A stretch of 32,337 bases of DNA, taken from assembly GCA_902773365.1 (NCBI GenBank), contig CACYEG010000033.1:1-32337 (forward strand), given 5' to 3'. The translations under genes and the position numbers were made by a program. Below the pieces are notes generated by a model that was given only the letters and a program-made list of their open reading frames with translations, searched no databases and had not been told where the DNA came from. Below, piece after piece: positions 249 to 17,465 of the stretch (position 1 is its first letter; the number at the start of each line of letters is the position of its first letter). Source of the DNA: an uncultured Erysipelotrichaceae bacterium (GTDB lineage Bacteria > Bacillota_I > Bacilli_A > RF39 > UBA660).

Positions 249-1253
249 CTATAACCATACACCGTAAATAATTCCTAACATTGCCAAGATAAAGCCAACT
301 GCCCAGAAGGCTCTTACAATGTCAGTTTCGCACCATCCCATTTTTTCAAAATGATGATGTAATGGTGCCATTTTAAATACTTTTTTATGAAATTTTCTTA
401 TAGCGATTACTTGTATTAAACTACTAAGTGTTTCGATGACAAATACTCCTCCTATTAATATGAGTGAGAATTCGTGTCTAGTTAATACTGCAACTGTTGC
501 AAGTGCACCTCCAAGTGCTAAAGAACCAGTATCACCCATAATAACTTTTGCAGGGTGTGAATTAAATAATAGGAATCCACCAAGTGATCCAATAAGGATA
601 AAACAGAATATTGCAATTTCTTGATATCCTGCAAGCCACGTCGTATTCCAGGCAATTAAGCCAAATGCAATAAAGGCAAATATAGAAAGCCCGCTAGCCA
701 ATCCATCTAACCCATCAGTAATATTGACTGCATTTGTAGTCGATACTAATACCAAGAGTATGAACAATCCATAAGCCCACCCCATTGGAATATTGAGACC
801 AAAGAAACTGAATGTCAAATCGCCAGTTCCTCCATAATATCTATAAATAAAATAGAAAACTACTGCAATAATAACTTGAAGTATTAGTTTTTGAATTGAT
901 GTAAGGCCTTCACTACCACTTAATGAATTTTTCCTTTTTAATTTCAAATAATCATCTAAAAATCCAATAACACCATATCCTAAGAATACAAATACTAGAA
1001 TAATTAAATTATGTGTTATTGTTATACTTCCTCTTAAAAGAAGCAGCAAAAGAGCAATTATTGTTGGAATTATAAAGATTAAACCACCTATGGTTGGTAC
1101 TCCACTTTTCTTTTGATGGTTCTCATTCAAATAAGAATTGATTTTTTGTCCAAATTTTAATTTTTTTAAAATAGGTATTATTATAAACCCGCTAATCGAT
1201 GAAATTATAAAACCAAGCATAACTGCTAACACAGTTTTTGCCAATATTAACAT
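249..1253 (-). CDS. mraY: phospho-N-acetylmuramoyl-pentapeptide transferase MraY
   Basis: 334-aa polytopic membrane protein with MraY hallmarks: GFLDDYLKLKRK, NAVNITDGLDGLA, GDTGSLALGG, APLHHHFE. GAGGTG lies 8 nt upstream of the ATG. Confidence 0.95.
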   Translation of the reverse strand: MLILAKTVLAVMLGFIISSISGFIIIPILKKLKFGQKINSYLNENHQKKSGVPTIGGLIFIIPTIIALLLLLLRGSITITHNLIILVFVFLGYGVIGFLDDYLKLKRKNSLSGSEGLTSIQKLILQVIIAVVFYFIYRYYGGTGDLTFSFFGLNIPMGWAYGLFILLVLVSTTNAVNITDGLDGLASGLSIFAFIAFGLIAWNTTWLAGYQEIAIFCFILIGSLGGFLLFNSHPAKVIMGDTGSLALGGALATVAVLTRHEFSLILIGGVFVIETLSSLIQVIAIRKFHKKVFKMAPLHHHFEKMGWCETDIVRAFWAVGFILAMLGIIYGVWL

Positions 1254-1336
1254 AATATATACACCTCGTAAAAATATTATACAACATATAAATAATTATT
1301 ACTAGATAAATCTAATTATAGTAAGAAATCATGGCG

Positions 1337-3244
1337 TCAATTTGACAACAGTAGCTTTACAGTTCCATCTTTCTTAATATATTGGTTTGCACTAGGACTC
1401 ATGTAAATTACGGTATCTCCAGAACCGGAATATTCGACTTTAAAATCTTTTAAAATTTTTCTAGCTTCTTTTTTATCTAATCCCAATACATCAGGTAATT
1501 TTAGATATTCAGTTTCATACCATTCGTATTGTTTTGGCATACCTGTTTCATCTGGTTTAATGTTAAGTACTTCTATTGCACTTTTAAATACATTTTTTGC
1601 AATTGGCGCAGATACTGTGCCACCATATTGTGTAATACCTTTTGGATTGTTAACTGCGACATATACGATGATTTCTGGATCGTTCGCTGGCATGAAACCT
1701 ATAAATGAAACGATATAATTACCTGATAAGTATCTACCATTTTCAACTTTTTGTGCAGTTCCAGTTTTACCACCGACACGATAATTTTCAATATATGCAT
1801 TGTGCCCGGTACCATTTGCCACAACACTTTCTAAAGCAAAACGGACTAGTTCTGATGTTTTACTACTTATGACTTGTTTTACGACTTGTTTTTTATTTTC
1901 TAAAATTGTAGTATTTGTTTCAGGTTCACTAATGACTTTTACTATATAGGGCTTTAATAGTTCTCCGCCATTTATTGCTGCACTTACTGCTCGCGCTTGT
2001 TGTATTGGAGTTACACTTATTCCTTGGCCAAAAGATGTTGTAGCGGTTTCTACTGGCCCCATTTTATCTAACTTGAATAGAATACCAGATCCTTCTCCAT
2101 TTAAATCGATTCCCGTTTTATTACCGTATCCATAATTTCTTACGTAGTTATATAATGTGTTCGTGCCAAGTCTTTGACCTAAAACAACAAAACCTGGGTT
2201 GCATGAGTTTTCCACTACTTCCAAGAAGTTTTCACTTCCATGTCCTCCATGTTTCCAACATTTAATTCTGGCGTTTTCCACTTGTATAGAACCAGAATCA
2301 TAATATCTATCTTCAAAAAGATTTACCTTGTTTTCTTCTATAGCAGCACTCAAAGTAAGAATCTTAAACGTACTACCCGGTTCGTACGTTTTCCATATAG
2401 CTAAGTTTCTGTTGATTGCTTCTATGGAATAATTTTTATAATTATTTGGATCGAAATCCGGACGATTAGCAAGACCTAATATTTCCCCAGTTTTTGGATT
2501 CATTGCAATAATAAGTGCATCTTCTGGAGAATACATACTCATAACATTATCTAATTCTTTCTCAATAGATTTCTGTATATCTAAGTCGATGGTAAGCGTT
2601 ATGTTCATACCGCTTTGCGGTGGCTCATATTTTTCTTCTAACTTTAACCTGTGTCCTTTTCCATCCGAATAATACTTAATCGCTCCATTTACTCCAGTTA
2701 AGTATTTATCATAATATAACTCTAAACCGCTAAGTCCTTGGTTATCGATACCGACATAGCCTAAAACATGTGATAATAAATTATTATATGGATAATATCT
2801 TTTGGATTCTTTTAATAGATAAACTCCATCATAATTTAGTTTGCTGATTTTTTCTGCAACTTCGAAAGAAAGTTGTCTACCCTCTGGGTGAACTCTTTCT
2901 ATTGCAATTTTTTTTGTGACGTGCGCTAGCATTTTTTCATAGTCGACGTTTAGAATATCTGAAATATCTTTGGCTATTTTTTCTTTATCTTTTATTTGAT
3001 TAGGAATAAATACCAAGCTTGTAGTAGTTGCATTTGTTGCAATTACTTTGCCGTTTCTATCATATATTTCTCCACGATCAGCGCTGATGGGTAAGTTTCT
3101 ACTCCATAAGTCATTAGCAAGAGTATTTAATTTATCATAACTAATTACTTCGATATAAAATACTTTACCGATAACAAGTATCATCATCAGTACTACTACT
3201 AAAAATATTATTCTGACTCGTATATTTATTGTATTTTTGAACAT
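1337..3244 (-). CDS. class B penicillin-binding protein (FtsI/PBP2B/SpoVD family) with one C-terminal PASTA domain
   Basis: N-terminal TM anchor and PBP dimerisation region. Transpeptidase motifs STFK (GSTFKILT), SxN (NSCNPG) and KTGTA (GGKTGTAQK). PASTA-like tail (LPDVLGLDKKEARKILKD...). I prefer the ATG at 3244 (MFKNT...) because GGAGG at 3250-3254 sits inside the longer ORF-track start. Confidence 0.92.
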   Translation of the reverse strand: MFKNTINIRVRIIFLVVVLMMILVIGKVFYIEVISYDKLNTLANDLWSRNLPISADRGEIYDRNGKVIATNATTTSLVFIPNQIKDKEKIAKDISDILNVDYEKMLAHVTKKIAIERVHPEGRQLSFEVAEKISKLNYDGVYLLKESKRYYPYNNLLSHVLGYVGIDNQGLSGLELYYDKYLTGVNGAIKYYSDGKGHRLKLEEKYEPPQSGMNITLTIDLDIQKSIEKELDNVMSMYSPEDALIIAMNPKTGEILGLANRPDFDPNNYKNYSIEAINRNLAIWKTYEPGSTFKILTLSAAIEENKVNLFEDRYYDSGSIQVENARIKCWKHGGHGSENFLEVVENSCNPGFVVLGQRLGTNTLYNYVRNYGYGNKTGIDLNGEGSGILFKLDKMGPVETATTSFGQGISVTPIQQARAVSAAINGGELLKPYIVKVISEPETNTTILENKKQVVKQVISSKTSELVRFALESVVANGTGHNAYIENYRVGGKTGTAQKVENGRYLSGNYIVSFIGFMPANDPEIIVYVAVNNPKGITQYGGTVSAPIAKNVFKSAIEVLNIKPDETGMPKQYEWYETEYLKLPDVLGLDKKEARKILKDFKVEYSGSGDTVIYMSPSANQYIKKDGTVKLLLSN

Positions 3245-3430
3245 AAGTTCCTCCATTAAATTATATTATTTTAATGAATATAAATACATAAAAATAGTTA
3301 TATGTTTTCTAAGTATATTTAATAATCAATTTTCTGGTTATAGTAATATTAAATTAGATAAAACTTGTTAATTAGCATTATTATTTTTTTTGAATAACGA
3401 TGTAGTTTCACCTTTTGTATAAATCCAATA

Positions 3431-3460
3431 AAAAAAATAATCTTGTTTACACAAGATTAT
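3431..3460 (-). terminator. rho-independent terminator ending the four-gene SipW-type module
   Basis: Perfect 10-bp inverted repeat (ataatcttgt 3437-3446 / acaagattat 3451-3460) with a 4-nt loop. It overlaps the stop codon (3457-3459) and is followed on the minus RNA by a U7 tract (3431-3437). The stem is AU-rich with only 2 GC pairs, so it is weak. Confidence 0.45.
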
Positions 3461-5976
3461 TCATACATTGCAACAAAGTGCATGCTATATATTATTTCTA
3501 CTTGATCTCCTGGCATATATATTTTATCATCACCATTGTTGTACCATCCTTTAAATGTCTTACCTTCTACTTCTTTTGGTTCTGGTAAAGTATAGAATGA
3601 ATTGGCTTCATAATATTCAGCATTTTTATTTTCGCTTGTAGATACCATCCACATAAAACGTCCATTACTGTTCATTGGAGGTATGACAATTTTTCTATTT
3701 AGGACTCTATCAAATAGACTAATATCCAATAGTCCTTTATGTTGTAAAATCATAGCTTCTCTCATTCTAAAGCCTTTAAAGATATGTTCAGGGAATACAT
3801 GCGACCAATCTTCGTAGTGGAATACATCGCCTTTAGCAAGAAATTCTTCTCTTTCACTAGTCCATTTTAAATTATCATCGAATGTGAACATGTTAGATAC
3901 AACAAGTATTGCATCAGTCGTAAGTATATTGTCTGCAATTACATTGTGATAGAAAGTCGATGATACATGATAATATTTAACTGGACTGTGGATTTCTTCA
4001 ATCTTTTCAACAGTTACAATTTCTATTTCATTATTGTCATTAACCTTAATAACTCTCGTACCAACATGGAAGTTTTCTCTATCCTTTACAGACACATACC
4101 TTTTAGCATCCGCACTGTAAACACCATGAGTACCAACAGTCTTTAAAACTGATCCATCTGAAAAAGTATTAATCTGGTATTCATCTATATCTCCAGCTTG
4201 TTCTATCCATATAGGATATTCTTCTATTACTTGCCCGGTCTGATGACTTATAGCGATTAGCAAATCTTCATACCGTATATCTTCTATTTTTTTACTCGTG
4301 CCATCTGCAAGTCTTATCATAGTTCCTTCAACTAAGCACGTTTGATTATTTGCGGTAGTCGAAGTTGAGACGGAAATATTAGATTCTATATTCCCTGCAT
4401 ATATAGTAAAATTTGCAGTTGTTGTTGATCCACTTTGTAGTCTAAAGAAATACTCTGTACCATTCGTATAAGTTCCACTTGTAGGACTAACTGTTATGGT
4501 ACCATCTAGCTTGTAGTTATCTGCAGTTACAGTTATCGTAGATGAAAATTCTGCTTTATAGTAAATCTTTGTAGAAGTGACATTGTTCCCGTTGACAACA
4601 AGTGCTACGTTGTTGTTATTAGAAGTCAAAGTTAAGTCGTATTCGTATACTAAAGATATAGCGCTTGAAGAAACACAATAAGGATTACTACTGTTACAAT
4701 ATTCTAATCCACTATTTTGAGCGTGATCTTTTCCGTATACTTTGACAAAAAATGTTTTGTTGGCATTCTGTAAAGAAGATTTATTTTCTGTTAAGAATGC
4801 ATTATCTAGAATAAATTCATAACCTGTCGTTGGGGTATTTCCGCTTAATTCGACTGTTTTAAGAGGAGTCGATGTATTAGCACTATCAAATAATGCAATG
4901 TAGTAGTTATCGACATCTGTTCCACCAGAATCGAGTCTTTCCCAGGATACTTTAGTCTTTAATGAATTATTTGATGTATCATATTGTATTTTTTCAAAGG
5001 AAACATTGCCAATCGATACTGGAGTTGTATCTTGTACTTGCGATATTGGCACTGCAATATTAAGTGTACCAATACTCGTTGGATTCATGCCAGATGCTTC
5101 TACGATAATCGATGTAGTTGTTGTATCTTCTGTAAATATTGCACCATCAGATTTTTTTATGCAAACATTATATTGTTCAACATTACTCTCTGGGTCATTT
5201 TCATCTGGAGCTTGAATAGTAAAGCTACTTAGGGCATTCTCATTAGAGTCAACAAGTTGAAAATTAGAGTTACCTGATGTTACAGTAAAAGTCTTGGCGC
5301 TTTTATATGTATTTAATATTTCAAAGTCAAAACAGTCTAGATTCTGATTTTTCAAATCGACACTACTCGTTAATAAAGTTCCATAGAATTGTCCTGTTTC
5401 ATAGACTTCACTACCGACTGTAGCTTCTCCTCCGACTCCAATGGTAGTATTAGGCCGCGACGATTCTACCCTTATTTCTAGCTCGACCGCGAATTTTCTT
5501 ATTTCATCGCTTGCAATTACATCACCTATAGCTAAATCTGAGTTAGTAGTAGTTACAAAAGTATGTGTTATAAAAGCCCCGGCTTCATCATCGCTTGCAC
5601 CTGATATTGTTACTTCTGGAGCTATGTTAAACCCAGTAAATGTATAATCATCGATACTTCCATTATCGAGAGTAACTAAATATGTTGCATAATATGTAAC
5701 TTGTTCAGAAGAAACTGTAAAAGAATAATCTAATGCTATATTGTCATTATTATCTAAATAAAGGCCTTGTCCAGAATTAGCAGGTAACGTATTTCTCCCT
5801 GAGCTATCCACGCTGATATCGGTTATTTTGAGTTTACCAACCTTTCTTGTTGTTATTCCACCACCTATAGTAAGTATCTTATCACTAAATGCAAATCCAA
5901 AAGTCATAAGTACTATTATCAAGCAAAAAAAGAAGGTCAATAATATAAATATTTTTTTGTCGTTATTCTTTTTCAT
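3457..5976 (-). CDS. large secreted multidomain protein: SipW-type signal peptide, TasA-like N-domain, Ig/FN3-like beta region, Hint autoprocessing domain, unknown C-terminal module with a Listeria-Bacteroides-type repeat
   Basis: ATG at 5976 (MKKNNDKKIFILL...) lies 1 nt after the upstream stop, with an AAGGA Shine-Dalgarno. The signal peptide ends in TFGFAFSDKILTIGGGITT, nearly identical to the 187-aa protein at 8222..8785, and the following ~140 aa look paralogous to it. The middle is Thr/Ser/Asn-rich beta sequence with an FN3-like stretch (VSWERLDSGGTDVDNYYIALFD...YEF). The Hint domain starts at CLVEGTMIRLADGT. The C-terminus reads GKTFKGWYNNGDDKIYMPGDQVEI...VAMYE. There is no LPXTG, SLH, LysM or C-terminal TM. 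Confidence 0.85.
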   Translation of the reverse strand: MKKNNDKKIFILLTFFFCLIIVLMTFGFAFSDKILTIGGGITTRKVGKLKITDISVDSSGRNTLPANSGQGLYLDNNDNIALDYSFTVSSEQVTYYATYLVTLDNGSIDDYTFTGFNIAPEVTISGASDDEAGAFITHTFVTTTNSDLAIGDVIASDEIRKFAVELEIRVESSRPNTTIGVGGEATVGSEVYETGQFYGTLLTSSVDLKNQNLDCFDFEILNTYKSAKTFTVTSGNSNFQLVDSNENALSSFTIQAPDENDPESNVEQYNVCIKKSDGAIFTEDTTTTSIIVEASGMNPTSIGTLNIAVPISQVQDTTPVSIGNVSFEKIQYDTSNNSLKTKVSWERLDSGGTDVDNYYIALFDSANTSTPLKTVELSGNTPTTGYEFILDNAFLTENKSSLQNANKTFFVKVYGKDHAQNSGLEYCNSSNPYCVSSSAISLVYEYDLTLTSNNNNVALVVNGNNVTSTKIYYKAEFSSTITVTADNYKLDGTITVSPTSGTYTNGTEYFFRLQSGSTTTANFTIYAGNIESNISVSTSTTANNQTCLVEGTMIRLADGTSKKIEDIRYEDLLIAISHQTGQVIEEYPIWIEQAGDIDEYQINTFSDGSVLKTVGTHGVYSADAKRYVSVKDRENFHVGTRVIKVNDNNEIEIVTVEKIEEIHSPVKYYHVSSTFYHNVIADNILTTDAILVVSNMFTFDDNLKWTSEREEFLAKGDVFHYEDWSHVFPEHIFKGFRMREAMILQHKGLLDISLFDRVLNRKIVIPPMNSNGRFMWMVSTSENKNAEYYEANSFYTLPEPKEVEGKTFKGWYNNGDDKIYMPGDQVEIIYSMHFVAMYE
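3913..4338 (-). other. Hint (Hedgehog/intein-like) domain-coding segment inside the large secreted protein
   Basis: ORF-track residues 562-703. Block A is C-L-V-E-G-T-M-I (Cys codon 4338..4336). Block B is T-x-x-H (LKTVGTHGVY). A block F-like stretch reads VKYYHVSSTFYHNVIADN. The segment ends ILTTD-A, without a terminal His-Asn or a Cys/Ser/Thr +1 residue. Confidence 0.7.
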
Positions 5977-5977
5977 A

Positions 5978-7012
5978 TTATTTATCCTTCGATAGCGTAT
6001 ACCGCCAAGCAATCTTATCATTGATCATCAAAAATGTTGCTTTATCCTTTTCATCGCAAAAATTAATCGGTAATCTAAGTTCACTATGTGCATCCAACAG
6101 CTCATTAAAATTTTTAACTTCTATAATCTGTAAGTCCTCAATAGATGGCATTTTTTTAACAGTAATAATTATCGAATCATAGGTTTTTAATATTTTTCTT
6201 AACTTTTTAATATATTCTAGTTGACTCCTAGCTCTCATAATAAACACTATTACGACAAATATATATGATAGTATTGCAACACCTATAAGTGTAAAGCCAC
6301 CTATTCTAAATAATTTGTATTTTGAATCCTGTAAATAGTATTTATCTGAATTTAATGTTTCTTCTTTCTTTGGGCAATTAATCTCAATTGGCACTTCTAT
6401 AGTAGATTTAGTAAGAGGGATAGTTAAACTTACCTCTTCTTCCTTAATAAAGTCATCTCCACCAAATTCACTATTGATGACATTTTTAACTGTCATATAT
6501 ATCTTTAGAGATCCATTCATAGATAGAGAATATTGTTTTTTAAATTCCATTAGAATATCATTATAGTTTTGATAATCAACTTTGATGTTCTCTTTAATAT
6601 TAACCTCATTTGTATCGCTAAAATTTATTTTCTTTTCGGGTATTAATACATATTCTTTTTGCCAATAGTTATTGTCTTTATCATTTTGTAATTCTGCACT
6701 AATAACTCCTTTGATAGAATAACTATACTCTCCGCTTTTTATATTATCAAAAACAATATTATAGCTTAAATCTACATCGATATTGTCAATTAGACTTGTA
6801 ATATAGACCTTTCCTTTTTCTAGATATGGTGTTTCAAAGAACTTATTTTCCTTGAGGTAAACTTTATAATCGACGTCGCTAGTTTCTTTATAATTAATAG
6901 ATTCAACAAATGTATTTTTATAGCTCTTTTTTAAAAGAACAGCTCCAACTGGCAAAAAGATAATATAGCAAAACAGTAATATTACTGCTATGGCTTTTAT
7001 CTTTTTCTTCAT
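5978..7012 (-). CDS. bitopic membrane protein of unknown function: N-terminal TM, ~230-aa extracytoplasmic domain, C-terminal TM, ~90-aa cytoplasmic tail (architecture reminiscent of DUF5305, unverified)
   Basis: ATG at 7012 (MKKKIKAIAVILLFCYIIFLPVGAVLL) with GGAGG at 7020-7024 (7-nt spacer), overlapping the end of the upstream peptidase gene. Second TM is FRIGGFTLIGVAILSYIFVVIVFIM. The stop lies 1 nt before the next ATG, indicating translational coupling. Confidence 0.8.
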   Translation of the reverse strand: MKKKIKAIAVILLFCYIIFLPVGAVLLKKSYKNTFVESINYKETSDVDYKVYLKENKFFETPYLEKGKVYITSLIDNIDVDLSYNIVFDNIKSGEYSYSIKGVISAELQNDKDNNYWQKEYVLIPEKKINFSDTNEVNIKENIKVDYQNYNDILMEFKKQYSLSMNGSLKIYMTVKNVINSEFGGDDFIKEEEVSLTIPLTKSTIEVPIEINCPKKEETLNSDKYYLQDSKYKLFRIGGFTLIGVAILSYIFVVIVFIMRARSQLEYIKKLRKILKTYDSIIITVKKMPSIEDLQIIEVKNFNELLDAHSELRLPINFCDEKDKATFLMINDKIAWRYTLSKDK

Positions 7013-7016
7013 AATT

Positions 7017-8162
7017 TTACCTCCTTTCAAAAAGTTCATGAATCCAAACCGTCGGATAACCGGCATTATTTAAGGCATATTTAACTACACCATAAACATT
7101 TTCATTAGTTATATCCAATGCATCAATGGTTTCGTTGTTATCGCCTTTAGTAATAAATGTATAGACTCCTTTATCGTACTTAATTTTAACCACCCTATGA
7201 GTAATGATACCAGTACCAATATCAAAAGCAAGAATGTCACCTTCATTAACTTCACTTGCAAGTACTTTCTCAATTATTACAGCGTCTCCCCTTTTGTATG
7301 TTGGTTTCATACTATTTGAGACAATTGCAATGATGTGATATTTAAAGAACCCGCTTGTTAAGGCTGCAAGTAAAGATACAAACGCAAGCATTATAGCTAA
7401 AACTATTCTTCTTAAAGTTTTTTTTGCCATACGATGATAAGCATCCTTATATTTAATTTCTTTTCTCACTTGGTAATATATAACGAATGGTAAAATCAAA
7501 CTGAATATCGCACTCAAATAATCTCCTATTGCTGGTAAAAATGGCATAAAATAGGCATATAATTCGATTACTAACCTATAAATTAGAGATGGTGCAAAGC
7601 TTACATTATAAGTTACATATGAGTACATAGACTCATTTGCAATAATAGGAACAATAATAGTTGACGTAATGACAAATATGTTTTTGGCATTACTTAAGTC
7701 TTTACCACTAATTCCCATTATTATGTTTAACGCTATATATTCAATAGTCAATATTATTATTTCTTTTTTACTTGTACAGTTTTTTAAAATGATATATCTA
7801 AAAATTTCCATACATGTAAAAATGATTACATATGGATATATATTTTTTAAAATAACTAGGATATTGTTATCAAAGTGACTATACCCAAATCCTATAAAGA
7901 AACCCATCAAGTATGTACTGACAAAATACAAAAGCAAAATTGTTACTACAATCTTGATAGTAATCGGCTTTAAGTAATTTTTATCCCTCGAAAACCCAAA
8001 GGTGATATATCCAAATAGTGTAATTAAAAGCCAAAAAATCGTATTTATTATTAGAGAGTACTCCCTATACGATTTGATTGCTATTGCCTTAAACATAATA
8101 ATAAAAATTAATAGTATTATTTCAAAAATGTATACTCTCTTTATATTCTTTTTCATAATCAT
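7017..8162 (-). CDS. ER/archaeal-type (S26B, SipW-like) signal peptidase I fused to an N-terminal ~8-TM domain of unknown function
   Basis: The C-terminal ~135 aa (about 7017-7421) hold a TM anchor and then IVSNSMKPTYKRGD (Ser box, Ser codon 7313..7311), GIITHRVV (His box) and TKGDNN. This is the Ser/His pattern of SipW/Sec11-type peptidases, not the Ser/Lys pattern of LepB. Upstream are ~250 aa of about 8 hydrophobic helices. The start is uncertain (ATG at 8162 or 8156). The ORF-track start at 8204 lies inside a hairpin, and no good SD is visible. Confidence 0.8.
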   Translation of the reverse strand: MIMKKNIKRVYIFEIILLIFIIMFKAIAIKSYREYSLIINTIFWLLITLFGYITFGFSRDKNYLKPITIKIVVTILLLYFVSTYLMGFFIGFGYSHFDNNILVILKNIYPYVIIFTCMEIFRYIILKNCTSKKEIIILTIEYIALNIIMGISGKDLSNAKNIFVITSTIIVPIIANESMYSYVTYNVSFAPSLIYRLVIELYAYFMPFLPAIGDYLSAIFSLILPFVIYYQVRKEIKYKDAYHRMAKKTLRRIVLAIMLAFVSLLAALTSGFFKYHIIAIVSNSMKPTYKRGDAVIIEKVLASEVNEGDILAFDIGTGIITHRVVKIKYDKGVYTFITKGDNNETIDALDITNENVYGVVKYALNNAGYPTVWIHELFERR

Positions 8163-8173
8163 CACTAGTAATT

Positions 8174-8203
8174 TGTGTAATGCTGCATAAGCAGCATTAC
8201 ACA
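8174..8203 (-). promoter_or_regulatory. perfect 13-bp stem / 4-nt loop hairpin between the TasA-like gene and the peptidase gene
   Basis: tgtgtaatgctgc (8174-8186), ataa, gcagcattacaca (8191-8203). In the sense (minus) direction it is not followed by a U-tract. The U-tract is on the plus-strand side only. Confidence 0.6.
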
Positions 8204-8221
8204 TATTTTTAGTTAGTAGGA

Positions 8222-8785
8222 TTAAGCTTGTGCTTGTCCATATGTTAAAGTTACAGTTAATGTCTGAGTTTGATCTGTCTCTGGTAATGAACTTTCATTT
8301 GCTGGTTCAACATAAGAAACTTTTACATGAATAGTTTCAGTGCCTTCTGGTGCTAATGCTGAGTTACCAGTTATAGTATTTGTTGCAGCTGTGTAGTTAG
8401 TACTATTATATGTAACAACATGATCTAAATAATCAATATTAGAAGTGCTCGTTAATGCGATAGTTTTAAGTATAGCATTAAAATCACCGGCATTGATTAC
8501 ATCTGCATCAAATTCATAATAGTCACCAGGTTTATTTAAAGTGACAGTATATGAAATTGAAGTAGATCCATCTGCTGGTACACTTGGAGCTGTTGTAACA
8601 GTTGCGCCATTATTATTGATATTCTTAACTTCTTTGAAGTGAACATCCCATTTAGTAGCTTTTGCAGTAACTCCTCCTGTAATTGTTAAGTTAACATCAG
8701 AGAACGCAAAACCTATCGACATAGCAACTACTGCAACTAATAAAATAGCAATAACAGCAACATAAAAAGTGTTCTTCTTTTCCAT
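8222..8785 (-). CDS. small secreted beta-rich protein, TasA/camelysin-like candidate major subunit with SipW-type signal peptide
   Basis: ATG at 8785 (MEKKNTFYVAVIAILLVAVVAMSIGFAFSDVNLTITGGVTA...) with GGAGG at 8793-8797 (7-nt spacer). The ORF-track start is a TTG two codons upstream. FAFSD resembles the (F/W)A-x-F-(S/N)-D end of the TasA/CalY signal peptides. LNKPGDYYEFDADVINAGDFNAIL resembles TasA's NLKPGDKLTKDFQFENNGSLAIKEV. The functional call is by motif only. Confidence 0.75.
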   Translation of the reverse strand: MEKKNTFYVAVIAILLVAVVAMSIGFAFSDVNLTITGGVTAKATKWDVHFKEVKNINNNGATVTTAPSVPADGSTSISYTVTLNKPGDYYEFDADVINAGDFNAILKTIALTSTSNIDYLDHVVTYNSTNYTAATNTITGNSALAPEGTETIHVKVSYVEPANESSLPETDQTQTLTVTLTYGQAQA

Positions 8786-8808
8786 ATTCAATCCTCCTTA
8801 TTATCTTT

Positions 8809-8836
8809 AGTATAACACAAAATAATTCAAATACAA
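8809..8836 (-). promoter_or_regulatory. sigma-A-type promoter with extended -10 for the TasA-like/SipW-type module
   Basis: The minus strand reads TTGTAT, 16 nt, (TGT)TATACT. The -35 is at 8831-8836, the -10 at 8809-8814, and TG is at the extended -10 position. Confidence 0.45.
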
Positions 8837-8856
8837 ATCATTTTTATTCATTTTAC

Positions 8857-8881
8857 AAAAAAAGCCACGCATAAAAGTGAC
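8857..8881 (-). terminator. weak rho-independent terminator after the ABC exporter operon
   Basis: Minus RNA reads GUCAC-UUUUAUGC-GUGGC (5-bp stem including one G-U pair) immediately after the stop at 8882-8884, followed by U7 (8857-8863). Confidence 0.35.
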
Positions 8882-10951
8882 CTATAGTTCAAACTGTGAA
8901 TTATATAACTTTGAATAGAAGCCTTCCTTCTTCATAAGTTCATCGTGTGTTCCTTGTTCAATGATATTTCCTTCATTCATAACTAGTATTAAATCTGCAT
9001 TTTTAATAGTTGATAACCTGTGTGCAATTATAAAGCTTGTTTTGCCTTCTGTTAATTTATCCATTGCCTTTTGAACAAGTTCTTCTGTTCTTGTATCTAC
9101 GTTGCTGGTGGCTTCATCTAAAATTAAGAATGGTGCTTTTTCGATCATGCCTCTAGCAATAGTCAATAATTGCTTTTGTCCTTGACTGATTGTATCATTA
9201 TCGCCAAGTTTAGCTTCTAACTCGCCAGGTAATGTCTTAATAAAATGATCTACACCTACAGTTTTACAAGCATTCCAAATGTCTTTATCTTGTACATCAT
9301 TTTTATTAAATATTATATTTTCTTTAATAGTACCTTCAAATAGCCAAGTATCCTGTAATACCATTACAAATAAATCATGAATATTTTCTCTAGTTAAATC
9401 TTTTATGGATATGCCATCTATTATAATATCGCCAGAGTCTATTTCATAGAATTTCATTAAGAGATTTACCATTGTCGTCTTCCCAGCACCTGTTGGACCG
9501 ACAATTGCGACTTTTTGGCCACTTTTTATGAAAGCACTAAAGTCTTTTATGATCGGTTTTTCTTTATCATAACCAAATTTAACATTCTTAAATTCAATAT
9601 TTCCTTTTACATTATTTTTATCTAAATACTTTGTCAATCTCGATTCATCACTGAGATTTTGTTCATCTAAGAATTCAAATACCCTTTCTTGAGCAGCTGC
9701 GGTTGATTGTAGACCAGTTAAAGCTTGGGCTATTTGTGACAATGGATTAGTAAATAATCTTATATAAATCATGAATGCAACAATCGACCCAAATGTCGTT
9801 TTATTATTCATGACAAGAACTGCTCCTACTACGCAGACAGCAACATAGCCAAAATTGCCAATAAATCCCATAATTGGTTGCATTATGCCTGATAAGAATT
9901 GACTTTTTCTATTGCAATCGTAAAGCCTATTATTTATTTCATCAAATTCTTTTAAAGCATCTTCTTCTCCATTATAAGTTTTTACAACATTGTGTCCTGA
10001 ATATATTTCTTCTATGTGTGCATTTAAATTGCCCAACTCGTTTTGTCTTTCGATAAAATACTTCTGACTTTTCTTTAGTAAAACCGCAGAAAAAGCAAAA
10101 CCAAATATGCTTGCAAAGATTGCCGTAAAAGCCATTATCCAATTAGTTATAAACATCATAAGAATTGAACCTAAAAATAGTGTAATATTTGCAACAAGTG
10201 TAGATAGACTAGTATTCATATTCATGCCAATCGAATCTATATCATTAGTAACTCTCGATAATATGTCACCAGTTTCGTGAGTATCGAAATATTTAAGTGG
10301 CAGTTTATTTATTTTCAAACTGATATCATTTCTCAGTTTTTTGGAGTAAGCATTTGAAACTTCGGCCATAATTCTACCCTGTATATAGTTGAATAGTGAA
10401 CTCAATATATATATGATAGCTAATACTAATACTCTAATATTTATAGATTTAGTATTCATTTTGGGAATAACTAAGGTTTTAATAGATTCAGGTAACTCAT
10501 CTATTAGTTTCAATTCATTCTGTTTATTATCTTTAAGATTATTCTGTAAATCTATAAATTTTATCTGGTCATCAATAGAAATAATACTATTATTTACATT
10601 TATTTCTGTCAACAATTTTTGTTTTTCAAAAGAGTTTAAATTTGTAAAATATTCCTCAAATTCCATTGGATTTGCTAAAGAACCCTCGTAGTTTTTAAAG
10701 GCATTCCTATATATATTTATGTATACTTCCTGTAAAGCGTTTATATTGGGTTTAATCCCTGTGGTGATGATATTAGTAATGCTGGATAGTTTGCTAGGAG
10801 CAATAGTAGATAATATAGCACTAAATAATGCAAGAATAGTACATATAATTATCATTTTTCTCCATTTATCCAAGTTTTTAAATAAACGTATCATAGTTCC
10901 TTTAAAATCTTTTGATTTTAATGGTACATTCATTCCTCCTGGTCTAGGCAT
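8882..10951 (-). CDS. ABC exporter permease/ATPase, BmrD/YheH-like subunit (consensus NBD with degenerate signature, extended first extracellular loop)
   Basis: Walker A GPTGAGKTT, Q-loop VLQD, degenerate signature ISQGQ, Walker B FLILDEATS, H-loop IIAHR. About 115 aa lie between TM1 and TM2 (roughly 10441-10786). GGAGG lies 9 nt upstream of the ATG, and the gene overlaps the upstream stop by 8 nt. Confidence 0.92.
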   Translation of the reverse strand: MPRPGGMNVPLKSKDFKGTMIRLFKNLDKWRKMIIICTILALFSAILSTIAPSKLSSITNIITTGIKPNINALQEVYINIYRNAFKNYEGSLANPMEFEEYFTNLNSFEKQKLLTEINVNNSIISIDDQIKFIDLQNNLKDNKQNELKLIDELPESIKTLVIPKMNTKSINIRVLVLAIIYILSSLFNYIQGRIMAEVSNAYSKKLRNDISLKINKLPLKYFDTHETGDILSRVTNDIDSIGMNMNTSLSTLVANITLFLGSILMMFITNWIMAFTAIFASIFGFAFSAVLLKKSQKYFIERQNELGNLNAHIEEIYSGHNVVKTYNGEEDALKEFDEINNRLYDCNRKSQFLSGIMQPIMGFIGNFGYVAVCVVGAVLVMNNKTTFGSIVAFMIYIRLFTNPLSQIAQALTGLQSTAAAQERVFEFLDEQNLSDESRLTKYLDKNNVKGNIEFKNVKFGYDKEKPIIKDFSAFIKSGQKVAIVGPTGAGKTTMVNLLMKFYEIDSGDIIIDGISIKDLTRENIHDLFVMVLQDTWLFEGTIKENIIFNKNDVQDKDIWNACKTVGVDHFIKTLPGELEAKLGDNDTISQGQKQLLTIARGMIEKAPFLILDEATSNVDTRTEELVQKAMDKLTEGKTSFIIAHRLSTIKNADLILVMNEGNIIEQGTHDELMKKEGFYSKLYNSQFEL

Positions 10952-12704
10952 TTTCCAATTCCTCCTTACTTAACTGTGATAGAGCAATTTCTTTATATAC
11001 TTCACAAGTTTTTAATAATTCTTTGTGTGTACCCATGCCAACACATTTACCTTTATCTAAAACGATAATTTTATCTGCATTCATTATTGTACCAATTCTT
11101 TGGGCAACTATCATAATGGTTGCATCTTTAGTATACTTTTTTAACGCTTTTCTTAGAATCGAATCTGTTTTATAATCTAAGGCAGAGAAAGAATCGTCAA
11201 ATATGTAGATCTCTGGGTCCTTTGCAATAGCTCTAGCGATCGATAACCTTTGCATCTGACCACCAGATATATTTGTTCCGCCCCTTGCAATTAAAGTATC
11301 ATACTGTTTATCCATCTTTAAAACAAAGTCTTCAGCTTGCGCTACTTTAATTGCTTCTTTAATTTTGTTTAATGGAATTACCTTTTCCCCATTGTTACCG
11401 TATGACACATTACCTCTTACTGTTTTAGTAAACATCACAGCTTTTTGAGGAATATAACCAATTTTATTATTTAAATATTTTATATTGTAATCTTTTACAT
11501 TAATCGCATCGACTAGTACTTCGCCTTCAGTTGCATCATATAATCGTGGTACTAAATTAATAAGTGTAGACTTACCAGATCCTGTCGAACCAATAAAAGC
11601 GATAGTTTCTCCTTTATTTACTGTAAAAGATATATTCTTTAGCAAGTATTCTTCTGCATCGGGATATTTAAAACTGACATTTTTAAATTCAACAACGCCT
11701 TTTAAACTTGTTTTACCTGAAAAACTACCGGGCTTCATCGAAATTTCCTCATCCAAAACAGCATTAATTCTTTTAATTGATACATTAGCCCTCGGTAATA
11801 TCATAAATATCATCGTTAACATCAAAAATGATATAATAACTTGCATGCCATAGCTGCTAAAAACTACTATGTTACTAAACATATTTATTCTTTCAATCAT
11901 TCCGCTTTTTGCTATTATGTAAGCACCAACAAAGTAAATGCCAAGTTGTTGAAAATGCATAACAAAACCCATAATTGGACTCATTAGAGCAAAAGTCCTT
12001 TGGTTTTTAAGTTGCGTATTTGTCAAATCATCATTAACTTCACTAAATCTCTCGTTTTGGAAATTCTCCGCATTAAAAGCCCTAACTACTCTTATACCTG
12101 TAATATTCTCTCTTGTTACACTATTTATTTTATCGGTAAGTTTTTGCATACGTTCAAATCTTGGCGTAACTGTTTTTATAATAATTAAATTTGTAATGAC
12201 GATTATTACTACACCGAAAGCAGTAATGAGACTTAATTCTCCGCTTTTACCCAATATTTTTAATAGAGCCCAAACTGCCATTATTGGAGACTTTATAATC
12301 ATTTGCAATCCCATACTTAAAAGCATTTCAATTTGTGTTACATCGTTTGTTGTTCTTGTAATTAAACTGCTCGTTGAAAAATTTTTAATTTCTGCAATAC
12401 CAAATTCTTCAACTTTCATGAAAATCTTTCTTCGGATATTTTTAGAAAAATTTGCGGCAAGTAAAGATGTTAAATAGCCTATTAAAACAGTCGATAGCAT
12501 ACTTATTATGGCACATACAAGCATATAAGCACCTGGCTTTAATATTCCTTTAACGCCCGTTTTTTTCATAGTTACTATTCTAGTAATTTCACTCATATAC
12601 TCCGGCAATCTTAAGTCTAGAAACACAGAAAAAACAATCAATATGACAATACACATAATAATTAAAAAATCTTTTAAAGAAAAATTTTTAAACAGTTTAA
12701 ACAT
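10944..12704 (-). CDS. ABC exporter permease/ATPase, BmrC/YheI-like subunit (degenerate catalytic site)
   Basis: Walker A GSTGSGKST, canonical signature ISGGQ, Walker B IYIFDDS (catalytic Glu replaced by Asp), H-loop IVAQR (His replaced by Gln). This is the classic asymmetric heterodimer pattern when paired with the next gene. ATG at 12704 (MFKLFKNF...) with GGAGG at 12714-12718. Confidence 0.92.
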   Translation of the reverse strand: MFKLFKNFSLKDFLIIMCIVILIVFSVFLDLRLPEYMSEITRIVTMKKTGVKGILKPGAYMLVCAIISMLSTVLIGYLTSLLAANFSKNIRRKIFMKVEEFGIAEIKNFSTSSLITRTTNDVTQIEMLLSMGLQMIIKSPIMAVWALLKILGKSGELSLITAFGVVIIVITNLIIIKTVTPRFERMQKLTDKINSVTRENITGIRVVRAFNAENFQNERFSEVNDDLTNTQLKNQRTFALMSPIMGFVMHFQQLGIYFVGAYIIAKSGMIERINMFSNIVVFSSYGMQVIISFLMLTMIFMILPRANVSIKRINAVLDEEISMKPGSFSGKTSLKGVVEFKNVSFKYPDAEEYLLKNISFTVNKGETIAFIGSTGSGKSTLINLVPRLYDATEGEVLVDAINVKDYNIKYLNNKIGYIPQKAVMFTKTVRGNVSYGNNGEKVIPLNKIKEAIKVAQAEDFVLKMDKQYDTLIARGGTNISGGQMQRLSIARAIAKDPEIYIFDDSFSALDYKTDSILRKALKKYTKDATIMIVAQRIGTIMNADKIIVLDKGKCVGMGTHKELLKTCEVYKEIALSQLSKEELENA

Positions 12705-12748
12705 GTAAATTTCCTCCTTTTTATGAAATAAAAAGGGTATCACCCCTA

Positions 12749-13435
12749 TTAGTTATCTCTATTTCTGCCATAGATAAGTATCAATCTTAAAATACTAAGC
12801 GCTGCACTTAAAACTCCTGCTACATAGGTTAAGGCTGCAGCCCTTAATACTTTTTTGCTGCCAGATACTTCTTCGCTATTTAACAAATTTAAATTTTGTA
12901 ACTCTATTAAAGCACGTCTAGAAGCATCTATTTCAACTGGTAAAGTTACAAGTTGAAATAAAAGTATGGCACTTTCTAAGATTATTCCAGTCCAAATAAG
13001 ATTTAAGCTTTGCATTACAATACCTATGACAATTACAATGTATCCAACTCTTGATGAAATGTTGACAATTGGTACTATCTTTGATCTAATTCTCATAAAT
13101 GTATATCCAACTTTATCTTGAATAGCGTGTCCACACTCATGAGCTGCAACAGAAACAGAACTAATCGACTCTCCGTGAAAGACCTCACTAGATAGTCTTA
13201 TCACTTTTCTACTTGGATCATAATGATCAGTAAGATTACCTTTAGTCTCTACTATATATATGTCATTTAATCCGTTTTTATCCAATATTTCCTGAGCTGC
13301 TTCTCTTCCCGTTATTCCTTTTTTTGTAGATACCTTAGAAAATCTACTATAGTTAAACTTTACATAAAGACTTGCACCTAATGTGATAATTAATGTTATT
13401 AATGTAATTCCATAATATATTATATAATCGTTCAT
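12749..13435 (-). CDS. YugP-like membrane zinc metallopeptidase (Zn_peptidase_2 family)
   Basis: N-terminal TM, HECGHAIQD (HExxH), and two C-terminal TM helices. ATG at 13435 with GGAGG at 13440-13444. Confidence 0.85.
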   Translation of the reverse strand: MNDYIIYYGITLITLIITLGASLYVKFNYSRFSKVSTKKGITGREAAQEILDKNGLNDIYIVETKGNLTDHYDPSRKVIRLSSEVFHGESISSVSVAAHECGHAIQDKVGYTFMRIRSKIVPIVNISSRVGYIVIVIGIVMQSLNLIWTGIILESAILLFQLVTLPVEIDASRRALIELQNLNLLNSEEVSGSKKVLRAAALTYVAGVLSAALSILRLILIYGRNRDN

Positions 13436-13463
13436 AAATCCTCCTATATCCAATAATAATGAT

Positions 13464-13492
13464 ATTATATAATATTATATTTTACTATGCAA
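13464..13492 (-). promoter_or_regulatory. near-consensus sigma-A promoter for the yugP-like/ABC operon
   Basis: The minus strand reads TTGCAT, 17 nt, TATAAT. The -35 is at 13487-13492 and the -10 at 13464-13469. Confidence 0.5.
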
Positions 13493-13503
13493 CTTCTCTT
13501 TAA

Positions 13504-13535
13504 ATTAAAAAAAGTGTTAACATCGTCAACACTTT
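13504..13535 (-). terminator. rho-independent terminator after ftsZ
   Basis: Minus RNA reads AAAGUGUUGA-CGAUG-UUAACACUUU, a ~10-bp stem including one G-U pair, followed by UUUUAAUUU. Confidence 0.65.
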
Positions 13536-13546
13536 AAATAATCTTT

Positions 13547-14590
13547 TTAATAATCTCTATCTCTTAAGAATGGAGGTAAATCGAAATCGTCTTCTCTACT
13601 CTTTATTGTTTCTTTATTTTTGTTAGGGGTTTCGTCAGATTCTAAATCATCAAATCCTGTTGCAATAACAGTGACTATTACTTCATCAGTTAGGTTTTCG
13701 TTGATAACAACACCAAATATTGTATTGATATCAGTATTAGCGGATTCTCTTACTACATCTACAGCTTCTTCGGCTTCTATAAGTGTAAGTGACTTGCCAC
13801 CAGTTACATTGATAATTGCATCTGTTGCACCTTCTATACTTGTTTCAAGTAGTGGACTAGATACTGCGGCTTTAGCAGCTTCAAGGGCCCTATTCTCGCC
13901 AACTCCTAAGCCAATTCCAATCATTGCATTTCCGCGTTTTTCCATAACAGCTTTAACATCAGCGAAGTCTAGGTTAATTAAACCCGTTACAGCAATTAAA
14001 TCACTAATTGATTGTACTCCCCTATGAAGTACATTATCTACTTCTTTGAATGCATCTTCAAATTGTGTAGATTTATCGATGATGTCTCTCAATTTATCGT
14101 TTGGAATAACTATAAGTGTATCGACATGTTTTTTAAGTTCTTCAACACCCTTGATAGCTTGTTCCATTCTTCTATTACCTTCGAATCTAAATGGCTTTGT
14201 AACAATTCCCACAGTAAGAGCTCCTAAACTTTGAGCGATTTCTGCGACGATTGGCGCACCACCTGTTCCGGTTCCACCACCCATTCCGCAAGTTACAAAT
14301 ACCATATCGGCACCCTTAAGTGCTTCTTCGATTTCCGATTTGCTCTCAAGAGCTGATTCTTTTCCAACTTCTGGTTTAGTACCTGCTCCAAGTCCGTTAG
14401 TAATAGTAGCTCCTATTTGTAATTTAACTGGTGCTTTTGAACTGTTTAAAACCTGTAAATCTGTATTAGCAACTATGAAATCGACACCTTTTACCCCAGA
14501 TTCTATCATTCTATTGACGGCATTACATCCACCGCCACCTATACCAATAACCTTAATCTTAGCGATTTGGTTCATCTCTAATCCATTCAT
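13547..14590 (-). CDS. ftsZ: cell division GTPase FtsZ
   Basis: [17 protein letters not shown], tubulin signature [12 protein letters not shown], and a C-terminal linker plus DFDLPPFLR peptide. Confidence 0.97.
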
Positions 14591-14602
14591 ATATACATTC
14601 TC

Positions 14603-15844
14603 CTAACTATCAAAAAAGTATCCAAAAACCTTGCCCAACAAAGAAGTGTTTCCACTTATTTTGTTATCTTTATTATTCATTTTTTCTATTTCACTATCTT
14701 TAAATATTGAAAATACTATACCCCTTAAAGCAGTTTTTTCTTCAAAGTATTTAAGTATTCCAATGGCGCTTGCATATGAGTTGTCTCTTGCTCCTAAAAT
14801 GTTTAAGGATCCAACTCTACTACCTTTACCCAAGACTTTTTCCATCGTAAGATTAAAATCTTTGAGTTCAGTCAATCCTCCTGTTACAATTATATAACTA
14901 ATTTCTTTTTTTGTTAAGATATTTATTTGCTTTTTAGCTAAATTTAGTATTTCTTCAATCCTACTCTCTGCAATTGAACTGACATCGTATTGATTCAATT
15001 CAATCTCAACCTGATCTAATGAAACCACTTTTCTTACTTCATGTAGATTTGCAAGTTCTACTGATCCAAGAGCGATATCTCGATATATTTCTTTGCTAGC
15101 CTTAAAATCAATTTTATTCAAGAAAGCAATATCACGTATAATGTTTTCTCCGCCAATTTTATAGGTTTTATTGTTTGCAAGTATTCCACGGTTAAATATT
15201 GAAATGCTCGTTCTTTCATGCCCTATATTTATAATAGCTCCTGCCTCATTATCTAAATCTACATCTTTAAATGAATAATAATCACCCAATGCATTTGGTA
15301 TTATATCCACAATCTTTAAACCACTATCAGAAGCAGCTTTCATTATTGAAGAAATATAATCTTTTGGGGTTGTAATAACAATGGATTGTACACCAAGATG
15401 AGTACTTTTCATTCCTTTTGGATCTTTTGTGACTCTTTCATCGTCTAAAATAAATCTAATTGGAATTACTCCCAATAATACAAAACCTTCATCGATTAGA
15501 CCTGATGCACTTTTTTTAATAACTTCTTCTATATCAGTTCCGTTAATAATATATTCGTCGTTTCTTATGTCAATTAATCCTGTAGCTTTAATTAGCTTTG
15601 CGTTTTGCATATTGACACCAAGTATAGACTTTTTAATATCTATGCCTATAGTACAAGAAGCCGCACTAACAGCTGATTTAATCGCACCACTTAACTTTTC
15701 TATATCGGTTACTTTTCCGTTTTCTATTCCGGAAGAATTAACTTTATTTGCACTTAAAATGTGAAGTTTACCTTCAATGAACTCCCCAATTACTAATTTA
15801 ATTGTATCACAGCCAATATCAATACTCGAAACTATTTTTCTCAT
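14603..15844 (-). CDS. ftsA: cell division protein FtsA
   Basis: Actin-like ATPase (IDIGCDTIKLVIGE, VTGGLTE) with a C-terminal amphipathic membrane-targeting helix (LLGKVFGYFFDS). I prefer the ATG at 15844 (MRKIVSS...) with GGAG 8 nt upstream. The ORF-track start is a GTG three codons earlier. Confidence 0.95.
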   Translation of the reverse strand: MRKIVSSIDIGCDTIKLVIGEFIEGKLHILSANKVNSSGIENGKVTDIEKLSGAIKSAVSAASCTIGIDIKKSILGVNMQNAKLIKATGLIDIRNDEYIINGTDIEEVIKKSASGLIDEGFVLLGVIPIRFILDDERVTKDPKGMKSTHLGVQSIVITTPKDYISSIMKAASDSGLKIVDIIPNALGDYYSFKDVDLDNEAGAIINIGHERTSISIFNRGILANNKTYKIGGENIIRDIAFLNKIDFKASKEIYRDIALGSVELANLHEVRKVVSLDQVEIELNQYDVSSIAESRIEEILNLAKKQINILTKKEISYIIVTGGLTELKDFNLTMEKVLGKGSRVGSLNILGARDNSYASAIGILKYFEEKTALRGIVFSIFKDSEIEKMNNKDNKISGNTSLLGKVFGYFFDS

Positions 15845-15874
15845 ATCAAACACTCCACTTTTATAATTAAGCTA

Positions 15875-15903
15875 ATTATACTATAAATAGTCTACAATGT
15901 AAA
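15875..15903 (-). promoter_or_regulatory. sigma-A-type promoter for ftsA-ftsZ
   Basis: The minus strand reads TTTACA, 17 nt, TATAAT. The -35 is at 15898-15903 and the -10 at 15875-15880. Confidence 0.5.
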
Positions 15904-15942
15904 ACAAATTTCTCTAATCAACCATAAAAAAACTAGAGAACA

Positions 15943-17406: not shown

Positions 17407-17433
17407 ATTAACACACCCTTTTATTCTACTAAC

Positions 17434-17462: not shown

Positions 17463-17465
17463 GAG

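Follow-up and report, generated by a model that had tools for sequence, protein, structure and literature searches.

The window analysed here is a contig of 32,337 nucleotides from an uncultured Erysipelotrichaceae bacterium (CACYEG010000033.1, assembly GCA_902773365.1). On its reverse strand, the open reading frame (ORF) 3457..6021 codes for a large secreted protein whose last 293 residues are one module, made of a Hint domain (residues 562-703), a helical extension (704-788) and a beta domain (789-854). A preliminary description of the sequence had reported this ORF and its residue numbering (1-854) is retained throughout. The existence and the frame of the ORF were confirmed, but its start is probably different: the likelier start codon is M16, at position 5976, whose ATG is preceded by a ribosome-binding site (GAAGGA) at a distance of 8 nt and which matches the first residues (MKKNNDKK) of homologues P0001-P0005, giving a product of 839 amino acids. 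The features of the protein and of the neighboring genes are collected in Table 1.

Table 1. Positions of the large protein gene, its predicted parts and the adjoining genes of the cassette in the 32,337-nucleotide window.
Feature	Position	Strand	Basis or remark
Large fibre-associated protein gene	3457..5976	-	839 aa from M16; frame open back to 6021
SipW-type signal peptide	5890..5976	-	residues 16-44, ending ..MTFGFA
Candidate N-terminal donor strand (inferred)	5839..5889	-	first ~17 mature residues, FSDKILTIGGGITTRKV
N-extein body	4339..5838	-	residues 62-561; tandem beta-sandwich (Ig/FN3-like) domains
Predicted scissile junction Thr561/Cys562 (N-to-S acyl shift site)	4336..4341	-	Cys conservation
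Hint domain	3913..4338	-	residues 562-703; profile against PDB, Foldseek, conservation
Block-B His632	4126..4128	-	equivalent to intein B:10
Asp703	3913..3915	-	at intein/BIL terminal-Asn position; alignment ..NviadniLtt / HNFFANGVLAH (BIL2)
Conserved helical extension	3658..3912	-	residues 704-788; aligned in every homologue
Asn710	3892..3894	-	near-invariant, 7 residues past Hint-fold end
C-terminal beta domain	3460..3657	-	residues 789-854; beta strands at model residues 240-304
DUF5305 protein	5978..7066	-	PF17231 E 3.9e-17; two predicted transmembrane segments
SipW-like (archaeal-type) signal peptidase I	7017..8204	-	TIGR02228 E 3e-23; S24/S26 matches at residues 271-367
Small subunit, candidate major fibre subunit	8222..8791	-	189 aa; signal and N-terminal motif shared with large protein

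The preliminary description had recognized a Hint domain of the Hedgehog/intein type in this protein. The interval that it gave is exact (Cys562 = 4338-4336, Asp703 = 3915-3913) and the strings that it quoted, CLVEGTMIRLADG, TVGTHG and YYHVSSTFYHNVIADNILTTD-A, are all found in the protein. It had also proposed a search with hidden Markov models (HMMs) of Hint and intein domains, and here the outcome depends on the query. Taken alone, the large protein is sub-threshold everywhere: the Pfam Hint model PF01079 gives E values of 0.005-0.025 and 14.6-16.8 bits (cut-off 29.7), Intein_splicing gives E 0.03 and Hom_end_hint E 0.045 (the other Hint models with a match, PF14890 and PF05203, are likewise below their cut-offs), and PF13403 and PF07591 do not match in the Pfam search. 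The single-sequence search against the PDB returned nothing convincing and, besides the sub-threshold Hint matches, the single-sequence Pfam, NCBIfam and PDB searches gave AXH matches to the first strand. Such searches are too weak for this protein and profiles are therefore needed. For the family profile, 12 homologues were recovered using the whole protein and their C-terminal regions were aligned, which revealed an invariant Cys, IED, TF..G, His and Asn. This profile is significant against solved chains in the PDB, with matches to the bacterial intein-like (BIL) domain BIL2 of Tetrahymena BUBL1 (6y75/6tmm, E 1e-7), to an intein-containing chain (8w20, E 6e-6) and to the BIL domain of Clostridium thermocellum (2lwy, E 2e-5). 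Some relatives are significant as well: seven or eight of the 12 homologues match Hint or Hom_end_hint individually (best E 1.2e-8), and relative P0012 passes the PF01079 cut-off with 30.6 bits. As the window protein stays below the Pfam cut-offs while its relatives pass, the family is poorly covered by current models.

The fold was predicted with AlphaFold2 (AF2). The model of residues 550-854, built on 39 sequences, has a predicted local distance difference test score (pLDDT) of 93.9 and a predicted template modelling score (pTM) of 0.90, and the beta strands of the Hint domain span model residues 13-153. In a Foldseek search against the PDB the model gave 63 matches with E<1e-3, and all of the 50 matches listed have the Hint fold. 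The top match is BIL2 (6y75, E 1e-9), and the template modelling (TM) scores are 0.85 for the Mtu RecA mini-intein (3ifj), 0.85 for the C. thermocellum BIL domain (2lwy) and 0.78-0.81 for Hedgehog Hh-C (1at0/6tyy), with target-normalised values of 0.78-0.88 across mini-inteins, BIL domains and Hh-C. The comparison with Hog and intein folds that had been suggested thus gives a confident match to all three groups. Based on the agreement of the family profile with the superposed model, the assignment of residues 562-703 as a Hint domain is secure. By its predicted fold and catalytic residues the domain belongs to the HINT superfamily and is closest to BIL domains.

Residue conservation was counted over 271 module sequences aligned to the family HMM, with some positions covering fewer sequences. 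Cys562, at block A position 1, is Cys in 256 of 257 relatives and invariant in the 39-sequence alignment. It aligns to Cys1 of BIL2, the residue that was changed to Ala (C1A) in 6y75, and the -1 residue before it varies among relatives (G/S/T/P/I/V). His632 is His in 253 of 260 relatives. Block B had been read as T-x-x-H and this holds for the His, but the motif is not a strict TxxH: the Thr lies one residue farther from the His (T-V-G-T-H, or TxxxH, versus T-V-N-H in BIL2) and is Thr in 156 of about 260 relatives (~60%). In block F, Asn693 is conserved (241/253) and the Asp position, His685 here, is unconserved (N/H/S/F in relatives). At the end of the fold the penultimate-His position is Thr702 (T/S across the family), the position of Asp703 is D in 112, N in 67, S in 15, C in 14 and P in 10 sequences, and the +1 position is Ala704 here and G/A/D/P in relatives, with Cys, Ser and Thr not among the common residues. 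Block G, which had been called absent, does lack the His-Asn pair and the +1 nucleophile, but Asp703 occupies the place of the terminal Asn, and the block is degenerate rather than missing.

In inteins, the residues that act in the N-terminal acyl shift are the B:10 His and position 1, and those of the later steps are the G:6 His, the G:7 Asn and the +1 nucleophile; only the first step is used by Hedgehog, and BIL domains mainly cleave (PMC4031507, PMC7664689). The conservation in our family matches the residues needed only for step 1, the splicing residues being unconserved, and this pattern fits N-terminal cleavage only, in line with the proposal of the preliminary description that just the acyl-shift machinery is kept. 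Judged from these alignments, an active N-terminal acyl shift followed by cleavage, the first step common to more than one reading, is probable. One other option is that the Hint fold has lost cleavage and serves as a structural, adhesive or oligomerisation module. The offset block-B Thr, the missing block-F Asp and a window sequence under the Pfam cut-off for every Hint model would agree with this, and look-alikes without catalysis exist, such as the AXH module that weakly matches the first strand. Yet a position-1 Cys and a block-B His that are near-invariant over more than 250 relatives, whose sequences are otherwise as little as ~25% identical, are hard to explain without catalysis, and we regard a non-catalytic module as quite unlikely.

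The Hint fold could also belong to a genuine mobile intein that splices itself out of a host gene, and at the weak end of the search there are matches to helicase and RecA inteins over 'CLVEGT..ADG..K.IEDI' (P0104-P0107). However, the domain has neither a terminal His-Asn nor Cys, Ser or Thr at +1, its 142 residues are too few for a homing endonuclease, the sequence that flanks it on the C-terminal side co-varies with it even where the N-terminal partners are unrelated, and the module sits at the same place in every N-extein relative found. A genuine (class 1) intein was rejected on these grounds as extremely improbable.

The preliminary description overlooked that a conserved extension follows the Hint domain. 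Across the family it is about 65-85 residues long and comes directly after the Hint fold. In the model it consists of four short helices (723-730, 745-750, 757-761 and 768-774, mostly with pLDDT >90) and it is predicted, given the pTM of the whole model, to pack against the Hint domain. Its conserved positions are Asn710, Y/F712, Y736, D/E738, G750, R752 and E755. Of these, Asn710 (motif [SN]-N-[ILMF]-[YF]-x-[FI]) is found in 235 of 241 relatives and without exception in the 39-sequence alignment, and is far better conserved than the canonical terminal-Asn position at Asp703; in the AF2 model it comes directly after a one-turn helix (706-709). Asn710 might cap the structure or mark a second cleavage site that depends on Asn. 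The C-terminal beta domain (~65 residues) is found in about half of the family and weakly resembles the Listeria-Bacteroides repeat (Flg_new, PF09479; E 9e-4, with a sub-threshold 19.8 bits against a cut-off of 27). The number of residues between Asn710 and the C-terminus is accordingly bimodal, 57-90 residues with the extension alone or 130-160 residues with the beta domain added (~230 of 241 sequences), and because this distance is short in all but a handful of sequences the module is always C-terminal.

Searched as a profile against Pfam and PDB sequences, the extension gave no significant match. It weakly matches EF-hand proteins (calmodulin-like kinase domains, centrin) over FD[DE]N..W...R..F, with a non-significant E of ~0.1. 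The match was noted because AbpX fibres are reported to be calcium-responsive, and an EF-hand identity was rejected on account of this E value and of a loop that is off the EF-hand consensus.

Like BIL domains, which gave the best profile and fold matches (2lwy and 6y75/6tmm), our domain is a Hint domain in a non-intein context with variable N-terminal partners and no +1 nucleophile, and BIL domains mainly cleave (PMC7664689). Unlike them, it has Thr-Asp in place of His-Asn, so that the A-type motif is absent, and a block B that is one residue longer; it is always followed by the conserved extension of ~85 residues and always stands at the C-terminus of filament-type proteins. Many BIL domains reportedly occur in secreted bacterial proteins. 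The kinship raises the option of double processing, in which the module would be cut again at Asp703/Ala704 by Asp cyclisation or at Asn710/Met711 by Asn cyclisation, the Hint domain would be excised, and the extension would be freed or ligated to the N-extein by aminolysis. The solved BIL relatives do give N- and C-cleaved products (PMC7664689), 179 of 247 relatives have Asp or Asn at position 703, Asn710 is retained as described, and cyclisation of a terminal Asp, Gln or Glu is possible in some inteins (PMC4031507). On the other side, Thr or Ser replaces the penultimate His, ~28% of relatives have S, C, P, G or Y at position 703, Asn710 follows a short helix beyond the Hint fold, and the +1 residues are hydrophobic or small with no nucleophile among the common ones. 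A second cleavage is therefore unlikely in our view.

When 1.84 billion representatives were searched exhaustively with the profile, 6870 proteins had E<1e-3 and 1310 had E<1e-30, the latter being clusters at 50% identity. The commonest architecture among the top-scoring sequences is a protein of 760-850 residues with an N-terminus of the window-protein class (..IG[FY]A.Y..L.L.G; 77 classified sequences). The preliminary description did not see that the module has spread to other partners: there are canonical camelysin/TasA signals (AYF[ST]D), type IV prepilin N-termini (KGFTLIELL), Tat-like signals (SRRDA..) and phage tail-fibre-like N-termini (GDSLRxAFxKxNxNF, KIQLRRDT..). Relatives of ~360 residues (P0066, P0069, P0071-P0074, P0077 and P0082) have twin-arginine-like signals (KKLSRRDAIKLLGA..) ahead of the module, from which it follows that the module is also carried by proteins with Tat-type signals. 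In a library of viral protein structures the best match is a Hint protein of a giant virus (Gaeavirus sp., BFVD A0A3G5A239; 198 columns, rmsd 1.9, E 2e-16, 26% identity), which spans the Hint domain and part of the extension, and many phage proteins labelled as Hint-domain proteins rank after it. Based on this structural match the module appears to reach eukaryotic giant viruses.

Hint domains near the C-terminus of secreted bacterial proteins are also known from polymorphic toxins, where PT-HINT (PF07591) is predicted to be an autoprotease (PMC3482391). However, PT-HINT is combined with variable toxin domains and immunity genes, whereas the present module has a conserved C-terminal part of 57-160 residues and the next gene codes for a penicillin-binding protein. 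With this short, conserved end, no immunity gene and no PF07591 match, a polymorphic-toxin PT-HINT was rejected.

The part of the large protein that precedes the module starts with a signal peptide, which is the sole hydrophobic segment of the protein; cleavage after A44 is predicted, by analogy with TasA. The protein has no transmembrane segment or LPXTG motif of its own. Its N-terminus is of the xIG[FY]A class that was also found in the 77 relatives, and the motif of the first ~17 mature residues is common to the large protein and the small subunit. The AF2 model of the N-extein (residues 45-561; pLDDT 80, pTM 0.56) is nearly all beta, with the first 17 residues disordered (pLDDT <50), and this disorder, like the shared motif, would suit a donor strand. 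The alignment behind the model is shallow (9 sequences), and a third homologue search for the N-extein added just 3 full-length relatives, low-complexity words saturating the candidates. Its Foldseek matches are generic multi-domain Ig, FN3 and MG chains, with no TasA among the 50 matches listed.

The large protein gene is the last of a cassette of four genes. A scan of one genome per species with the 222-residue module found 79 loci (best match 90% identical), of which all but a few come from gut or rumen metagenome-assembled genomes (MAGs) labelled Bacilli, Tenericutes/Mycoplasmatota, Erysipelotrichaceae or Clostridia. Local phmmer detected the genes on one strand, in the order small subunit, SipW, DUF5305 and Hint protein, in at least 57 of 83 loci, and truncated contigs or pilin-type genes account for many of the exceptions. 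Where the SipW cassette is missing, the loci mostly code for pilin-like versions (KGFTLIELL / KGITLIAL; e.g., L025, L029, L032, L036 and L080-L083), and in Clostridia MAGs two or three pilin-type Hint-module genes stand in tandem (L082, L083; e.g., L082:96-6124). Every recovered N-extein relative with a complete gene bears the module. A metagenome scan for module-less N-extein relatives gave 4 loci, the complete ones all with the module; the sample that is independent of the Hint domain has 3 loci and low power. In one MAG there is a second cassette (L053:9108-14306) with a small subunit, a SipW and a 560-residue DUF5305 protein with an acidic N-terminal extension. Its last gene codes for a 516-residue protein that shares the signal class and has a Listeria-Bacteroides-like repeat, yet lacks the Hint module, and this paralogous cassette indicates that the module is optional in this type of system.

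Within the cassette, the peptidase also matches the SipW model NF046067 (E 4e-14, under its cut-off). It has an extra polytopic N-terminal domain of ~260 residues with six predicted membrane segments and no Pfam match, and peptidase ORFs of similar size (~1.1-1.2 kb) are found in other loci. The small and the large protein are alike only over their first 44 residues (39% identity, BLASTP E 2e-7), that is the signal peptide and GFAFSD..LTI.GG.T. DUF11 is matched by 11 of 27 small-subunit family members. The best PDB match of the small-subunit profile is AbpX (9sj2, 9rhp; E 0.25); a 'pilus assembly protein' (9rwu) is matched as well, and all of these E values (0.25-0.5) are non-significant. The preliminary description had called the large protein SipW-type secreted and TasA-like. 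SipW-dependent secretion holds, with a SipW-like peptidase and DUF5305 encoded upstream and a shared signal, but a TasA-superfamily fold was not demonstrated for the large subunit with Foldseek on the N-extein or for the small subunit with its profile against the PDB. The 'TasA-like' label of the N-terminal part rests on the operon context and on the shared N-terminal motif.

It was shown that DUF5305 (TafG) occurs together with signal peptidase I in archaeal Tafi loci and in AbpX loci of the TasA superfamily, whose fibres assemble by donor-strand complementation, and DUF5305 was proposed to be an accessory subunit of signal peptidase I (PMC12337348; bioRxiv 10.64898/2026.01.04.697558). Bacterial AbpX loci encode large accessory proteins with S-layer homology (SLH) or LPXTG anchors, and the large protein is predicted to join the fibre by donor-strand complementation (bioRxiv 10.64898/2026.01.04.697558). 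Our cassette resembles the TasA, AbpX and Tafi loci (tapA-sipW-tasA; abpX and taf clusters) in its SipW/archaeal-type signal peptidase I, DUF5305, small subunit and large accessory protein, and, as in AbpX and Tafi subunits, an N-terminal signal and strand motif is common to the small and the large protein. It differs in the polytopic domain of its peptidase and in the Hint domain. The preliminary description knew of no TasA/TapA-type system with a Hint domain, and our full-text literature searches agree, as they link no Hint domain to SipW or DUF5305 systems; neither of the two studies cited above mentions Hint domains or inteins.

A mechanism that fits these findings can be suggested. The large protein would be exported by the Sec pathway, and the SipW-like peptidase, together with DUF5305, would remove the signal peptide after Ala44. 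Outside the cell, the Hint domain would fold and Cys562 would attack the Thr561 carbonyl in an N-to-S acyl shift, with His632 assisting. The thioester might then be resolved by water, which would free a 517-residue beta-sandwich N-extein with a Thr561 carboxylate and discard the 293-residue module. The freed N-extein may be a tip or accessory subunit of a donor-strand fibre made of the small subunit, and the module may act as a removable pro-domain that aids folding or restrains the subunit until assembly. A similar role is known from the peptidase S74 domains of phage tail fibres and spikes, which are self-cleaving C-terminal intramolecular chaperones with a Ser-Lys dyad. The likeness is one of function, in that a C-terminal module of a fibrous protein would be removed autocatalytically after folding or assembly, and the present family also sits on phage tail-fibre-like proteins; the fold and the chemistry are unrelated (Ser-Lys dyad versus Cys thioester). 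We favor hydrolysis because the same module caps proteins of very different compartments, including phage fibres, and self-removal fits all of them. As phage fibres are put together in the cytoplasm, a cell-wall acceptor would make no sense for them, and the presence of the module on such proteins argues for a context-independent role. Hydrolytic removal of the C-terminal pro-module is still a tentative reading, with a little less than an even chance.

Another option is that the Thr561-Cys562 thioester is passed, as in Hedgehog or sortase reactions, to a nucleophile positioned by the extension, which would then act as an adduct-recognition region (ARR). A peptidoglycan or lipid II amine, a hydroxyl of a wall polymer or lipid, or a lysine of another subunit would be candidate acceptors, and the N-extein would become covalently anchored or cross-linked without a sortase. 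The layout of a Hint domain with a packed extension of 65-85 residues mirrors that of Hog, where the Hint domain is followed by a sterol-recognition region (SRR) or ARR (PMC2362128), and the extension has near-invariant polar residues. Moreover, the module occupies the place of the SLH or LPXTG anchors in bacterial AbpX-type large proteins, and the large protein has no such motif or membrane segment of its own. However, the module is also found on phage tail-fibre-like, Tat-type and pilin-type proteins, and no single wall or lipid acceptor suits all of them; this spread weakens a model of cell-wall-specific anchoring. No similarity of the extension to the Hedgehog SRR, to Pfam or to the PDB could be detected, and the acceptors are hypothetical. 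Transfer is therefore possible but, in our judgment, rather doubtful.

Beyond this layout, the resemblance to Hedgehog/Hog (1at0) includes the Hint fold, the restriction to the N-terminal acyl shift, and the position of the Hint domain and a conserved region of ~60-85 residues at the C-terminus of a secreted protein (PMC2362128, PMC7664689). In contrast to Hog, the module is prokaryotic and phage-borne, has no G-C-F junction motif, and its extension is without sequence similarity to SRR or ARR. To our knowledge, sterols are not to be expected in this host. A bolder form of the transfer idea, which we find doubtful as well and put forward as speculation, is that the module is the prokaryotic counterpart of the Hog domain: the extension would recruit a specific nucleophile to which Thr561 is transferred, allowing sortase-independent anchoring or cross-linking in SipW-type fibres, type IV pilin-like proteins and phage fibres alike. 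Transfer of the thioester to an acceptor, if it takes place, would mean a new way of attaching proteins covalently to the surface and a bacterial analogue of Hedgehog lipidation.

Several points weigh against hydrolytic removal of a pro-module. We infer the cleavage from the sequence and the model, and the block-B Thr is offset and conserved in only ~60% of the relatives. A bare Hint domain suffices for hydrolysis in BIL and PT-HINT domains, and the conserved extension (N710, R752, E755) suggests an additional function, e.g., acceptor recognition. By analogy, the wall anchors (SLH/LPXTG) of the related AbpX large proteins hint at anchoring over release. Finally, with the Hint-less large protein of the L053 cassette, the module is not essential to such systems.

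The known roles of Hint domains are in inteins, Hedgehog processing, BIL domains and toxin-releasing peptidases, and the present module differs from all of them. It defines a distinct and very large family, in which Hint is welded to a conserved, unannotated extension and caps filament-type surface proteins, and it serves at least three unrelated filament routes, namely SipW/DUF5305 donor-strand fibres, type IV pilin-like proteins and phage fibres. Most of this family escapes the current Pfam Hint models, and the TasA/AbpX/Tafi literature that we searched does not mention the module. Even if it only cleaves itself, a widespread class of fibres in gut Bacillota would have one more step of maturation, and the module could supply compact new self-cleaving tags.

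In the rest of the window, the gene downstream of the Hint protein codes for a SpoVD-like penicillin-binding protein (PBP). The region 249-19238 is a neighborhood of division and cell-wall genes, which runs from MraY and this PBP through the cassette and two ABC transporter genes to a Zn peptidase, FtsZ and FtsA. Relative L001 has other genes around its cassette (e.g., Tex upstream), which shows that the chromosomal position of the cassette is not conserved. A scan for promoters and terminators gave counts at chance level and yielded no useful site apart from a terminator-like hairpin (8883-8862) that lies upstream of the cassette. Four ORFs of 202-487 residues, all on the reverse strand (15943-17406, 20505-21161, 22362-22970 and 30702-31766), have no Pfam match at E<=1e-5. 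With UvrC, Lon, LCP and YqfD in addition to MraY, the PBP, FtsZ and FtsA, the remaining window is ordinary chromosome of a walled, possibly spore-forming member of the Bacillota.

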